Positions 14,541-24,037 of a DNA stretch of 24,037 nucleotides are shown here, piece after piece. The first letter of the stretch is position 1; the number at the start of each line of letters is the position of its first letter. Made by a program: the position numbers and the translations under genes. Source of the stretch: a virus. Below the pieces are notes generated by a model. It saw only the letters and a program-made list of their open reading frames with translations. It did not search any database and was not told the origin of the DNA. The DNA lies in UHGV virus genome UHGV-0103738. The stretch is one strand, 5' to 3'.

Positions 14541-17500
14541 TGGGATTTGAAATATTGGTAGGCGCGGTTATTGCTGGTGCGTCTGCTGGGATGGCTGCTG
14601 CTGCAACATTTTCTGTTATGACCGCAGTCGCTATCGGTATGGCTGCTGGTGCAATGACCTTGATCGCTTCCACTGTAGGCGCACCAAAAACACCGAAAGT
14701 ACAAAGCCCAGATAATGCGGTGACACTAGGAACATCAAACGATCCGAAGACAGTATTACCCGTTCTTTTCGGTACTACCCGCACGGGTGCAATCTGCGTT
14801 TACAAAGCAATTTCTAAGCAAGAAAACAATAAGTTAGTGCAAATCTTCGCAATTGCAGAGGGTGAAATCGACCATTACAAAGCACTATTCATCGATAACA
14901 AAAATGTTCTTGTTGGTAAGAACATGACGATCCGTGATGGTGTACTGGACAAAGGCAACATTAAAGAAGAATACCGGAAAGTTTTAGAGGTTGAGTTCCG
15001 CACTGGTAAGAATCCTAACACCGCTTTGTCACTGGCAAAACGTCACTTAGGGTCAGACTGGAACGACAACTACAAAGGCAATGGTATTGCGACCATGTGT
15101 ATTGTGTTGCGTCGTGATGACAAATCTCTTGCTGCTGGTGTTGATATTCTCCAACCAAATAGCCAGGTAGCGGTAGACGTTTGCGGGTTAAAGATTCGTA
15201 ACCTTGAAACCAATGCTATTGAGGCTAGCACTAACGGCGTGGACCAGATTTTCCATTATCTGACAAATACAAAATATGGTCTTAGTGTACCAATTGAAAA
15301 CATCAACGTTGATTCATTCCTGAAAGTACGTAAGCAAGTACGCCAGATGGATTTGCATTCAAACGGTGCATGTGATCCGAACGCCAGCTTTAAAGAGAAC
15401 TTGACTAGCCTTATGCAGACTTTCGGCGGGGTGATGTTCGAATCCTTTGGACGTATTACGCTGAAACTGGATGCTCCTGATATTGTTAAGCATACCTTCA
15501 ATGAAGACAATATCATGATGGGTAAGGTATCACTGAAAACAGGTGGCACTAACGGTTATTTCAATACCATTAACGCGATGTATCAAGAACCATCAATCGA
15601 CTATTCAGAGCAAATGCTACGTTATCCGGCTGATGCTGAAAACGATGCTACTATTCGTCAAGATGGTCGAATTATCGCTAAAGATATTGAATATCGTTTT
15701 GTTAAGTCTAAAGCCCAGATTGATAAACTTGCGAGTATTGAGCGAAATAAATCTCGTATCACTCAGGTTATCAGCTTTATGACTACTGACGCATTCACTG
15801 CCGAAGTTTGGGACGTTATCAGCGTAACCTATGATGAATTGAAGCTGAATAATTCCTTATGGCGTATTACTGCAATTGATCGCTCGATTGATTCTGGTAT
15901 TGCTGGGATGATGACTATCACCGCTACAGAATATAATTCTCAGGTTTATACTGACCTGAACTATGCGGCTAACCCAGATAACCGACCAAGTGGTTTACCG
16001 GATTCAATGACAGTACAGAAGCCTACTAATTTCAGAATTAAGGCAACTGGCGAGACGATTTACGGTAAAAACGTTACTTTGACATGGGATGCACCAGAAG
16101 ATTTTAACCGCTACGGCTTCCAGATTGATTACCGTGTAAGCGGATCACCTAACTGGATTAAGTTGGGACAGACTTCACAGCAAATTTTCAGTGTCAATGC
16201 ACTGGCAAAAGATCGTTCCTACGATTACCGAGTTTGTGCTTTCGGTATCATCGCGAGATCCGATTGGGTAGAACTGATTAACCAGAATCCTACTGTTACC
16301 TATGAATTGCCGACTCCGGTTATTCGAATCAAAAATCAGGGTAGCACGCCAGGAACTTTCGAAGGTAATGATCTGATTATCGAATGGGAAAATCAGCAAC
16401 AATTAGATGTTGAGATCAACGGTGAAACTAACAAGTTTAGTGACCTGTTTGAAGCATACATTATCAAGGTGACTAACAAGGCTGGTAAGTCTATTCAGTA
16501 CCGTACCCGCGATCCTGAATCATGGACTTATACGCTTGATATGAACCAGTTTAACGGCCTTTCGCGTCAACTTACGGTAGAAGTATCAGCTAAGGGCTAT
16601 AACAACTCAGAGAGCGCCCCAGCGCGTTTAGTGGCTATCAACCCACAACATAAGCCAATGAAAGGTTTTAGTGCGCGTGGTGGCTTTAATACTGCGTTTG
16701 TTAGCTGGGCGGATGACGTAGAACATGACTATGCAGGGTCAATCATCCAGTATGCAACCGACAACACTTTCTCAGATGCAAGGGCAGTAAGTACGAATAG
16801 TGTTAGCCATACTTCCTTTGATATTGCTGACGGTGATTATTATATCCGTGGTGCTCACTACGATATTTTCGGTATGGATGATGCTGTTTGGTCTGAACCG
16901 TATTTCATGCAAATGAAGTCTACGATTAGTTGGGACGATCAGGACAAAGAAGCACTGGAAGACCTGATCGGTTTACAAGATCGCTTAGATGAAACTATCG
17001 CGGATGCTATTAAGCAAGCTGGCGCTAATGCCGATGCTAAAATTGATGCAATGCATAAGCAAATCACTACCGAGACGGGTAAAACTGTTCAAGCCTCAGC
17101 CGATACCTTAAAGAGTCTGATTGCTTCTGGTGATAAGGCAAGTTCAACTAAGATTGATCAGGTTAAAGCTGAACTGAAAGGCGATATCACCAAAGAAGTT
17201 AGCGCCTCCGCTACAACCCTGAAACAAGCAATTGCAACCAGTGAGGCAGCAAGCGCAAGTAAGATTGATCAAGTTCGGGTAGAAATGGATGGCAAGATTG
17301 CTGGTGTGAATCAGGAAGCAGATGTAAAAATCGATGCTTTGAAAGGAACCATTAACAGCAAATACAATCTGGCGGTTAATGCAGATGGTCGCGTGGCTGG
17401 TATTCATATGAGCGCAACCAATGATCCGGCAGAACCGACAAGAATCATCTTTACGGCTGATAAAATCGCGGTAGCTCCACAGAATGGATCGGGGGTATGT

Positions 17501-22545: not shown

Positions 22546-22585
22546 AAACAAAAACGCCCCTACCGCGTATTATAACGATAGGGGC
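22546..22585 (-). terminator. Hairpin with T-run immediately upstream of the recombinase start (– strand)
   Basis: 10-bp stem whose one imperfect position is a G-U pair only in the – strand transcript, followed on the – strand by GTTTTTGTTT. The loop contains TTATAAT. Confidence 0.5.
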
Positions 22586-22599
22586 TAGGTGATTAAAGA

Positions 22600-23019
22600 T
22601 TAAAGAATTTCACGGCAGCTAATCAGGGAATAAGACGTATCACCTTTTTTAACATCAAATATAGGCGCGCCATCTACAGAATGCAGATATTTGATGTAGG
22701 ATTTACCATCTTCGGAACCATAATATTCTTCTTTCTCGTTCTTATCTTCTTTCAGTTTTGGGCTTTTGATTGTTTTATCAAATACCGGATCGTTGAAAGC
22801 AAATTGACTATTATCATCATTCACTCGAACCTTTACACCGATAAAACCACGGTATTTGCCAGACGGCGCATGATAATAACGGTCGCCATCACTCAGGTAG
22901 CGTGTATCATCTCCTTTATATTCGAAGTAGGAATTGCACACATAATAGGTATAGGTATTAGCATTCGCAGCACCAACCAAACCCAGAGCAAGAACAACAC
23001 CAGCGATAATCTTTTTCAT
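22600..23019 (-). CDS. Secreted (periplasmic) Tyr-rich protein (139 aa)
   Basis: SD AAGAGGAAA. Classic Sec signal peptide MKKIIAGVVLALGLVGAANA. Two Cys in the mature part. Confidence 0.6.
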   Translation of the reverse strand: MKKIIAGVVLALGLVGAANANTYTYYVCNSYFEYKGDDTRYLSDGDRYYHAPSGKYRGFIGVKVRVNDDNSQFAFNDPVFDKTIKSPKLKEDKNEKEEYYGSEDGKSYIKYLHSVDGAPIFDVKKGDTSYSLISCREIL

Positions 23020-23064: not shown

Positions 23065-23187
23065 TTAAAAGTTAATGCTAATAATCAGCCCAAACACAAC
23101 CGCACCAATCAAATCAATCCAGTTAATACACAGCGAATATTCTTTCTTGAATGTCTTAGATGAAATGCCATCATGAAATTGTTTCAT
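23065..23187 (-). CDS. Small membrane peptide (40 aa), not in the ORF track
   Basis: SD-like GGGGTGAG before the ATG. Sequence MKQFHDGISSKTFKKEYSLCINWIDLIGAVVFGLIISINF has a C-terminal transmembrane helix. Confidence 0.3.
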   Translation of the reverse strand: MKQFHDGISSKTFKKEYSLCINWIDLIGAVVFGLIISINF

Positions 23188-23190
23188 TGC

Positions 23191-23271
23191 TCACCCCATA
23201 CTAACGACAATATAAGAAAGACTAATCATGGTTGTGAGACTACCTCCCACGAATGAGATAAAAGCTAACAT
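23191..23271 (-). CDS. Very small hydrophobic peptide (26 aa), not in the ORF track
   Basis: GGAG 8 nt before the ATG. Sequence MLAFISFVGGSLTTMISLSYIVVSMG. Its stop overlaps the SD of the next small ORF. Could equally be a leader or non-coding. Confidence 0.2.
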   Translation of the reverse strand: MLAFISFVGGSLTTMISLSYIVVSMG

Positions 23272-23285
23272 GTTTGATTCTCCAT

Positions 23286-23313
23286 TTAAAAAGCGGTGGG
23301 AATTACACCCACC
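23286..23313 (-). terminator. Terminator-like hairpin after the 145-aa gene (– strand)
   Basis: Stem GGTGGG / CCCACC with a 7-nt loop, followed on the – strand by GCTTTTT. Confidence 0.5.
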
Positions 23314-23327
23314 AAATTAGAAATTAA

Positions 23328-23765
23328 TTAAGCGCGAACGATGGTCAGAGTATCCAGCAAACCTTTTTCGTATAATTCGAAACACGTTTTATATTGCTCA
23401 ATCTTCCAACCGTAGCGGGTGATCTTATTCAGTAGAATAATCACGGTATTCTCATCTAGGTATTGTCCTTGCTTACCAATTACATATGACTCGCGGGATA
23501 GTCTCAGCTTACGGAAACCTTTAACACCTAATTCCTTAGCCACCGCTTTAATCTCGTTAATCTCACCTTCTGCGGCTACATATTCAGCGTCGATAATCTC
23601 AGTTGATGATCTCAGTGCTACCAGAACTAAGGCCATTGCTTCTTCTTCGGTACGAGCAACACCAGCTTTCTCGAAAGTCATCTCACCAAATTTACGAGTC
23701 ATAATATTGAACATTGTCTGTATTCCGTTTAAATCGGCGGGAATAGTACCCGCCAAATTAGACAT
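23328..23765 (-). CDS. Hypothetical protein (145 aa)
   Basis: ORF whose ATG overlaps the upstream stop (TAATG at 23763-23767). No recognised motif. Confidence 0.55.
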   Translation of the reverse strand: MSNLAGTIPADLNGIQTMFNIMTRKFGEMTFEKAGVARTEEEAMALVLVALRSSTEIIDAEYVAAEGEINEIKAVAKELGVKGFRKLRLSRESYVIGKQGQYLDENTVIILLNKITRYGWKIEQYKTCFELYEKGLLDTLTIVRA

Positions 23766-24037
23766 TACTTCTTGCTGATAAACTCTTTAGCGATAAAGTT
23801 GATTACTTCTTTCAGCTTCTTGTCTGTATCGATGCACGCTGGTAATTCTTCTTTAATATCCTGCGGCAGATACACATTGCCTTTAAAGTGGAGGAAACCA
23901 TCATTACCAATCATGTAGGAGAACATCCATTCACAATCGTTATCCGCTTCCCAGAACGCCACGGTCTCATCCCCAATCAAGGTAATGTCCATGTTGCGAC
24001 GCGCTGCGTAGTTGATGATTGCTTTACCGATGTTCAT
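23765..24037 (-). CDS. Hypothetical protein (90 aa as seen; ATG falls exactly at the window edge, so it may extend upstream)
   Basis: ORF ending in a TAATG overlap with the next gene. No recognised motif. Confidence 0.45.
   Translation of the reverse strand: MNIGKAIINYAARRNMDITLIGDETVAFWEADNDCEWMFSYMIGNDGFLHFKGNVYLPQDIKEELPACIDTDKKLKEVINFIAKEFISKK

Follow-up and report, generated by a model that had tools for sequence, protein, structure and literature searches.

Introduction

How are two small genes at the very end of a prophage expressed, and what might their products do? This question is raised by one edge of the UHGV virus genome UHGV-0103738, of which a stretch of 24,037 nucleotides (nt), here called the window, was analysed. 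The last part of the window carries two open reading frames (ORFs) on the minus strand, ORF-B with 90 amino acids (aa) and ORF-A, listed with 145 aa. A sequence-only reading had described them as translationally coupled proteins of unknown function that precede a terminator, and had thought of early or accessory roles such as anti-defence or host takeover. Both frames are present (Table 1) and share a one-base TAATG stop/start overlap at 23765. We propose here that the two genes would be transcribed from a predicted sigma-70 promoter whose -35 and -10 hexamers lie on opposite ends of the prophage, and which would be complete only while the phage DNA is free.

Two genuine genes at the outer end of an E. 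coli prophage

ORF-B and ORF-A are genuine genes under purifying selection, as judged from their PHROG matches, the phage records found with tblastn and the ratio of non-synonymous to synonymous substitution rates (dN/dS). ORF-B belongs over its full length to PHROG 6147 (E = 8.3e-33, residues 1-85 on profile positions 1-88 of 91), occurs in 422 phage records and, compared with an E. coli homologue of 70% identity, shows a dN/dS of about 0.14. A Shine-Dalgarno (SD) sequence GAGGGGG is located 7 nt 5' of its ATG, just beyond the window edge, and in the full locus an in-frame TAA stands 13 codons 5' of the start; the gene is therefore complete. ORF-A is a member of PHROG 14908 through aa 68-142 (E = 2.4e-19, profile positions 3-77 of 83), with aa 1-67 falling outside this family. 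Its carboxy-terminal domain (C-domain) was found in 57 phage records. The N-terminal part has accumulated 2 non-synonymous versus 5-7 synonymous changes, and purifying selection acts on both parts of the protein.

The 1.5 kb around the two genes are 100% identical to the chromosome of E. coli 14EC029 and are present in 60 of 5,426 complete E. coli genomes. The annotated context reveals an E. coli prophage of about 34.4 kb, of which the window is the right-hand 24 kb. The prophage encodes a terminase gpA, portal, capsid and tail genes, an M15-type endolysin and a large serine recombinase; the closest integrase among sequenced phages is only ~30% identical. It sits inside the antitoxin gene hicB. 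Comparison of both junctions with the hicB reading frame gave the common core GGCAA and placed the right prophage end 39-41 nt past the last base of the window, and hence ORF-B is the outermost prophage gene. From this end inwards the minus strand carries ORF-B, ORF-A, the terminator, two tiny hydrophobic ORFs, a gene for a 139-aa secreted protein, a hairpin and the integrase gene int.

On the integrated map this minus-strand block is read from the prophage end towards int and is convergent with the plus-strand tail and lysis genes. The divergence from the late operon that had been read from the window does not hold for the prophage. A divergence from terS, the gene of the small terminase subunit, exists only on the circular map across the phage attachment site attP, and it is seen in relatives. 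There, the gene across attP from the cargo slot, as we call the region between the attachment (att) site and int, encodes the small terminase subunit (phrog_57; locus L015, 36965-37531, and locus L025, 11257-11811), and attP is thus flanked by the packaging genes on one side and the int-cargo block on the other. The prophage of the window differs in that an LprI-like gene with a terminator is inserted across attP from the slot.

A predicted promoter that would be split by integration

The attP site was reconstructed in silico by joining the right and the left prophage ends at the core, and was scanned for the sigma-70 consensus. In the direction of ORF-B it reads ...GGGGCTTTTTATTGCAAAATTTTTAGTTATTTTGGG TTGACT acattcgggttgcctaa TATCAT gtacccacaataacacGAGGGGGtacaaca ATG. 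The pair TTGACT-17-TATCAT matches the consensus in 10 of 12 positions with a spacer of 17 nt, and the predicted promoter lies 24 nt upstream of the strong SD. The -35 hexamer TTGACT and an AT-rich tract belong to the left prophage end (locus L002, ~16741-16746), while the -10 hexamer TATCAT, a leader or 5' untranslated region of ~25 nt and the SD belong to the right end (locus L001, 21539-21577). The crossover core GGCAA (L001 21578-21582) falls within the promoter spacer. The two hexamers are located on opposite prophage ends and come to functional spacing once these are joined in silico, which is the arrangement of a junction promoter.

In attR, attL and attB the consensus scan found no site of at least 9/12 on the ORF-B strand. 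Upstream of ORF-B, the integrated form has 39 nt of phage DNA, after which comes the hicB 3' fragment, read on its antisense strand. The scan gave no promoter-like site of at least 9/12 upstream of ORF-B in attR or between the cassettes, and the minus strand from 24037 to int holds nothing better than one 9/12 match. Sites of at least 10/12 occur at a background of 0.06-0.08 per kb per strand, as counted in the window and 181 kb of related loci, which corresponds to an expectation of about 0.005 such sites over the 70 nt that precede the start codon.

Three related prophages give similar reconstructions that match the consensus in 10-11 of 12 positions, so that the hexamer pair is seen in four lineages. 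In PSJ-22, which is integrated in ycdX and has an ORF-B that is only 70% identical, attP again reads TTGACT-17-TATCAT. OkiPb01713 yields TTGACT-17-TATAAT (11/12), and MEI003 yields TTTACA-18-TATCAT, where two substitutions within the -35 hexamer still leave 5/6. Between the window's prophage and PSJ-22, arm and leader are identical at 62 of 69 positions; the ORF-B coding sequence beside them is 75% identical, with synonymous sites near saturation. A hairpin with a T-run is located directly upstream of the -35 in 14EC029 (by folding) and in OkiPb01713 (by eye). As read from the sequence, neither the -35 nor the -10 has a mirrored copy in the other arm of the imperfect dyad GGGT...ACAT / ATGT...ACCC.

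Serious caveats apply to this promoter and to the role that we propose for its genes. Searches of IMG/VR, JGI metagenomes and GTDB representative genomes returned no intact attP and no virion-derived genome; the 4 metagenome matches were all integrated forms and the 3 GTDB matches were chance hits in unrelated taxa. The circular form is therefore only reconstructed. The present prophage copy, moreover, carries an IS3 element. Both hexamers are situated inside the ~50-bp attP that the integrase must bind, and hence their conservation could reflect recombination and not transcription. One Salmonella lineage has a weaker -10 hexamer, TACCAT. In some relatives the slot holds a gene for a secreted protein or a lipoprotein, a type of cargo that is usually expressed in the lysogen, and another promoter may therefore exist. 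Finally, an anti-defence role is drawn from association, and Foldseek gave no similarity to any solved structure. Taking both sides together, the balance tips slightly towards a functional split promoter, judged from sequence.

If the promoter works as predicted, host RNA polymerase would transcribe ORF-B and ORF-A from attP once the DNA is free, either after injection or after excision, and integration would bisect the promoter and silence both genes in lysogens. The terminator at 23294-23314 would end the transcription unit in this variant. Salmonella relatives have no intervening terminator after the cargo, and the same transcript could there reach int. The two proteins would then bind a host or competing-phage component soon after DNA entry, a timing that is suggested by the occurrence of their homologues in small-gene arrays of virulent coliphages.

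That the scan found no promoter in the integrated form also bears on two other explanations. ORF-B and ORF-A could be morons that are transcribed from the resident prophage and provide the lysogen with superinfection exclusion or defence. An att-proximal mosaic slot with a terminator is classic moron anatomy, and the same slot holds the secreted protein here and a lipoprotein (phrog_10370) in Salmonella. However, the region upstream of ORF-B in attR is devoid of promoter-like sites at both integration sites, the flanking host genes are oriented the wrong way, and PADLOC returned no match. Furthermore, the homologues are mainly found in virulent phages, which form no lysogens. We therefore regard lysogen-expressed morons as unlikely. 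Far less probable is a role of one of the proteins as a recombination directionality factor (RDF), which would bind to the large serine integrase and turn it towards excision. The RDFs of serine integrases, such as phiC31 gp3, Bxb1 gp47, TP901-1 Orf7 and SPbeta SprB, are small and varied and difficult to spot by sequence, and the two genes are indeed close to int. Yet an RDF must be made from the prophage before excision, where no promoter was found, and an RDF made together with Int from incoming DNA would block integration. Homologues in virulent phages that have no integrase, and the dispensability of either gene in relatives with the same int, speak against this role as well.

Separable cassettes and the start of ORF-A

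Related prophages differ in what they carry between the att site and int, and the slot is mosaic. It contains ORF-B and ORF-A in this window, ORF-B with a C-domain gene and a lipoprotein gene in one group of Salmonella prophages (L011-13), only a C-domain gene in another (L007-10), ORF-B with unrelated 113-aa and 81-aa genes in PSJ-22, and only ORF-A in OkiPb01713 and PE15. The constant parts are the arm and leader on one side and the tiny ORFs, the hairpin and int on the other. ORF-B and ORF-A thus behave as cassettes that can be separated, and each of them has an SD leader and is bounded by a hairpin. The two do not form an obligate coupled pair, as each gene is found without the other in relatives.

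The terminator that had been noted behind the pair could be confirmed as a hairpin (23294-23314) with a T-run, 14 nt past the ORF-A stop. Its fold of -12 kcal/mol is not significant by itself (z = -1.4), but the hairpin is kept as the 3' cassette boundary in relatives, where it follows ORF-A in OkiPb01713 and stands directly after ORF-B in PSJ-22. A repeat search identified 23731-23770 as a 40-nt direct repeat of the terminator region 23290-23329, with 80% identity; the copy at 23731-23770 takes in the stop codon of ORF-B and reaches 11 codons into the 145-aa reading. In the alignment, the stem GGCGGG/CCCGCC of this spacer copy and the stem GGTGGG/CCCACC of the terminator differ by a compensatory change, and the T-run of the spacer copy is degraded. 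Its 70-nt context folds with -18.2 kcal/mol (z = -2.8). The decayed 51-nt terminator would now let transcripts read through between ORF-B and ORF-A.

This repeat changes the view on the start of ORF-A. In PSJ-22 the intact terminator directly follows ORF-B, and TAATT is found where the window reads TAATG; one substitution has therefore created the overlapping ATG. OkiPb01713 and PE15 are devoid of ORF-B and have a 128-aa ORF-A annotated right at the prophage end. In OkiPb01713 the leader ACGAGGGGGTACAACA-ATG is the same as that of ORF-B, fused to ORF-A at Met18 (MFNIM), and in MEI003 the ORF-B stop TAA is followed by 12 nt and the ATG of Met18. In the AlphaFold2 (AF2) model of the 145-aa reading, residues 1-20 have a predicted local distance difference test score (pLDDT) below 50. 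Thus, ORF-A most likely has 128 aa and starts at Met18, and the stretch 23715-23765 is more likely an intercistronic spacer than 17 extra codons. Translational coupling is doubtful: the codons between the upstream ATG and Met18 are a decayed terminator repeat, three relatives start at Met18, and the TAATG coupling is probably an artefact of one substitution in this variant.

A translationally coupled two-gene toxin-antitoxin or abortive-infection pair is the explanation to which we give the least credit. Small adjacent genes with a stop/start overlap, TAATG here and ATGA in Salmonella, where the ORF-B homologue overlaps an 81-aa C-domain gene, would fit such a pair, and insertion in the toxin-antitoxin locus hicB might invite this reading. 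On the other side, each of the two genes is also found without the other, in prophages as well as in virulent phages; Pfam, NCBIfam and PADLOC gave no match to a toxin or antitoxin family; the stop/start overlap seen here probably arose by chance; and the same phage arms also integrate in ycdX.

What the proteins might do

Inspection by eye revealed no obvious signal peptide or membrane-spanning segment in either protein, and both are probably small, soluble and cytoplasmic, as far as can be told from their sequences. The AF2 model of ORF-B has a pLDDT of 90.5 and consists of a helix, a four-stranded sheet, a short helix and a long C-terminal helix (alpha-beta4-alpha-alpha). In the ORF-A model the C-domain reaches a pLDDT of ~85 (alpha-beta-beta-alpha-beta-alpha-beta), and the helical N-terminal part stays below 50. 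The C-domain is basic, with an isoelectric point (pI) of 9.3, and may bind nucleic acid.

PHROG 6147 and PHROG 14908 are both annotated as 'unknown function', and the earlier statement that no motif or function can be assigned is borne out by our searches. Scans of ORF-B and ORF-A against Pfam, NCBIfam and PADLOC gave nothing above noise, sequence and profile searches against the PDB gave nothing, and Rfam had no match in the region. Foldseek searches of both models against the PDB produced no significant match; the best E values were 0.05-0.1, with query-normalised template modelling (TM) scores of at most 0.44 for the top-ranked structures. Against BFVD, the ORF-B model matched only uncharacterised phage proteins. 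Source annotations of the homologues and the literature on family and locus identifiers and on hicB or ycdX prophages contained nothing relevant. Homology to structural or replication proteins, which the sequence-only reading had set as its refutation, was looked for and none was found.

A few weak candidates were set aside. A Rho_N match on ORF-A (E = 0.03) was rejected because the AF2 model shows a helix followed by a beta-hairpin and not helix-extended-helix. The resemblance of ORF-B to the RWD-like Spc24/25 domain (Foldseek E = 0.1, TM 0.42) and that of ORF-A to the PulM C-domain (Foldseek E = 0.05) were both read as generic alpha/beta similarity. Some family members are named 'beta/alpha barrel domain-containing' or 'type I 3-dehydroquinate dehydratase' at NCBI; these names were not reproduced by NCBIfam and were treated as spurious.

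The family of the ORF-A C-domain is small, with only 58 clusters among the 1.84 billion representative proteins that were searched exhaustively with a profile. It exists as a stand-alone protein of ~80 aa in RB49-like T4-type phages and in Salmonella prophages, and the extra N-terminal ~50 aa of ORF-A had matches only in Escherichia and Shigella entries among the searches made here. Family members in which the C-domain is fused to other parts (P0103, P0108, P0109, P0114 and others) contain no known Pfam domain. One 144-aa protein with another N-terminus, P0048 from a 1-kb contig, is probably a chimera and was disregarded.

In virulent phages the homologues are single genes within arrays of small genes, which are nearly all annotated as hypothetical, and these arrays adjoin early-type genes, for example alt and DNA methyltransferases. 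RB49p190 is located between the DNA ligase gene and alt, two genes from a DNA methyltransferase. The gp255 gene of phAPEC8 is part of the left-end small-gene cluster, downstream of a predicted promoter, and gene 55 of the T1-like phage Bas11 opens a co-directional gene run that leads to a Dcm-like methylase and a helicase. The early or accessory role that had been proposed for ORF-B and ORF-A fits this neighbourhood, and it also fits the observation that the sole promoter found occurs only on unintegrated DNA.

A 101-aa ORF-B homologue stands directly downstream of parA-parG (locus L030, 6362-7612) in ~22.6-kb Salmonella contigs that have an SU10-type portal and terminase, which suggests a phage-plasmid context. 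Records labelled 'Campylobacter phage', of the same size as these contigs, also match ORF-B.

The distribution in virulent phages is likewise relevant for the idea that ORF-B and ORF-A help to establish lysogeny, as small proteins that are co-expressed with int on incoming DNA and bias the decision towards integration or aid the serine integrase, by a logic like that of lambda CIII. The cargo is co-directional with and upstream of int in every lineage, Salmonella relatives have no terminator between the cargo and the small ORFs and int, and the promoter would be shut off by integration itself. However, members of both families are frequent in strictly virulent, integrase-less phages, either gene is absent from otherwise similar prophages, and in this window a terminator parts the cargo from int. 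We consider such a helper role quite improbable, more so than that of a moron.

Returning to the split promoter, our leading guess for the proteins is that they belong to an anti-defence or host-modulation class, although this guess, made by association, is a tentative one that may well be wrong. The combined reading, in which an integration-split promoter would give early expression from free DNA of proteins directed against the host or rivals, falls a little short of an even chance. In its most specific form, a sigma-70 promoter straddling attP in a tailed phage with a serine integrase, which integration shuts for the cargo slot and possibly for int, and a cargo of early counter-defence or host-modulating proteins common to T4-like, rV5-like and T1-like phages, the proposal is possible but on the doubtful side.

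Should the split promoter be real, it would hard-wire expression to the time during which the phage DNA is free and stop it at integration. We know of no tailed phage with a promoter logic restricted to the free form, and none turned up in our literature searches. The first genes behind attP would then be functions 'needed on arrival', which could guide the choice of candidates in screens for anti-defence or host-takeover genes. Both families are widespread in coliphages (see the record counts above) and uncharacterised, so that a function assigned to them would carry over to many phages of the therapeutic type. If the promoter is not functional, ORF-B and ORF-A are two more hypothetical phage accessory genes. 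What goes beyond the routine in this locus is the proposed integration-split promoter together with the architecture of cassettes that are bounded by leader and terminator.

Relation to known systems

Promoters that depend on the joining of ends have been described before. Circles of insertion sequences (IS) such as IS911 and IS30 have junction promoters, and these come closest in geometry: the hexamers lie on opposite ends, and in the case predicted here the crossover falls within the spacer. Circular-form-dependent transcription is also known from Pcirc of ICEclc and from the joint-dependent tra transcription of Tn916 (PMC5812530). In all of these systems, as proposed for attP, joining of the ends creates or connects a promoter, and genes that the integrated element does not express are switched on in its excised or incoming form. 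In ICEclc and Tn916, however, a complete promoter is brought upstream of the genes, whereas here the -35 and -10 are predicted to come from opposite ends. ICEclc, Tn916 and the IS circles also differ from the present element in kind, which is a tailed phage using a large serine integrase and in which swappable accessory cargo would be driven first.

Integration also alters expression in other phages. Lambda sib retroregulation of int and the integration-dependent immunity of mycobacteriophage BPs are examples, and the intS promoter of KplE1 reportedly overlaps attL. As in these cases, the difference between prophage and free genome at att would serve as a regulatory switch. In contrast to lambda sib and BPs, where the mRNA or protein of int or the repressor is affected through its 3' end or by gene truncation, the promoter itself would be bisected here.

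Phage morons are cassettes of a gene and a terminator between conserved phage genes, for example in lambdoid phages, and the classic moron has its own promoter and is expressed in the prophage. ORF-B and ORF-A resemble morons in being small, swappable, terminator-bounded accessory cassettes of variable presence in a mosaic slot near att. They differ from the classic moron in that the consensus scan found no promoter of their own; the cassettes share one leader and the predicted promoter at attP. Compared with the PHROG 6147 and PHROG 14908 members phAPEC8 gp255, Bas11 gene 55 and RB49p190, the genes analysed here are found in a temperate phage beside attP and int, and ORF-A bears the additional N-terminal part.

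Feature coordinates, insertion site and neighbouring genes

Table 1. Coordinates in the window of ORF-B, ORF-A and the elements between them and int.
Feature	Position	Strand	Description
ORF-B	23765..24037	-	90 aa, soluble, acidic (pI 4.9), PHROG 6147 family; first gene inside the right prophage end
ORF-B start codon	24035..24037	-	ATG, final triplet of the window
ORF-B stop to ORF-A Met18	23715..23765	-	51 nt, readable as 17 extra codons giving the TAATG overlap
Decayed cassette-terminator stem-loop	23734..23756	-	GGCGGG-N7-CCCGCC; T-run reduced to GATTTAAA
ORF-A, 145-aa reading	23328..23765	-	from the ORF listing and sequence
ORF-A from Met18 (most likely reading)	23328..23714	-	128 aa; acidic helical N-part (aa 18-66 of the 145-aa reading) and basic C-domain (aa 67-145)
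Intrinsic-terminator-like hairpin	23284..23329	-	stem 23294-23314 + CTTTTTAAAT; ends the ORF-B/ORF-A unit; terminator scan and fold
Tiny hydrophobic ORF	23191..23271	-	26 aa
Tiny hydrophobic ORF	23065..23187	-	40 aa
139-aa ORF	22600..23019	-	signal-peptide-like N-terminus
Hairpin before int	22556..22585	-	11-bp stem (one mismatch) GCCCCTATCGTTATAATACGCGGTAGGGGC + T-run; TATAAT in the loop
Serine-integrase ATG	22536	-	start of int

The insertion leaves about 103 codons of hicB, to which the phage arm appends NPNVVNPK and a stop, and the C-terminal DNA-binding part of the antitoxin is lost (L001 21575-21694, L002 16752-17060). The HicAB module may be deregulated by lysogeny. The toxin gene hicA has a frameshift in 14EC029 but is intact by annotation in OkiPb01713. 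A compensation of the disrupted HicB by ORF-B was considered and rejected: the same arms and ORF-B also occur in ycdX, and HicB is not among the 50 best Foldseek matches. Near-identical phage arms were found at the two chromosomal sites, hicB and ycdX (loci L014-L019; hits H158, H181-H195). The two attB half-sites, TTTAGGTTTGCC and TTTGGATTCCC, are similar, and the base directly before the core CC varies among the junctions. The IS3-family element of this prophage copy is located in the non-structural region (L002 12170-13332, in the left part, outside the window), and no repressor or replication gene is annotated in the stretches that were covered. Because of these two features this prophage copy may be defective.

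Further inwards on the minus strand, the product of the 139-aa ORF is probably secreted or periplasmic and is a candidate for superinfection-exclusion cargo. The equivalent position is occupied by a 105-aa lipoprotein (phrog_13472/10370) in Salmonella and by unrelated genes in PSJ-22. The two tiny ORFs between cargo and int are conserved in E. coli PSJ-22 and in Salmonella relatives, had no Rfam or PHROG assignment, and could encode small membrane proteins or a type I toxin-like module. The hairpin right before the integrase start recurs with identical sequence in a Salmonella prophage, where the genes next to it have diverged strongly; it may act as a terminator, in which case int would need read-through, or as another regulatory element.

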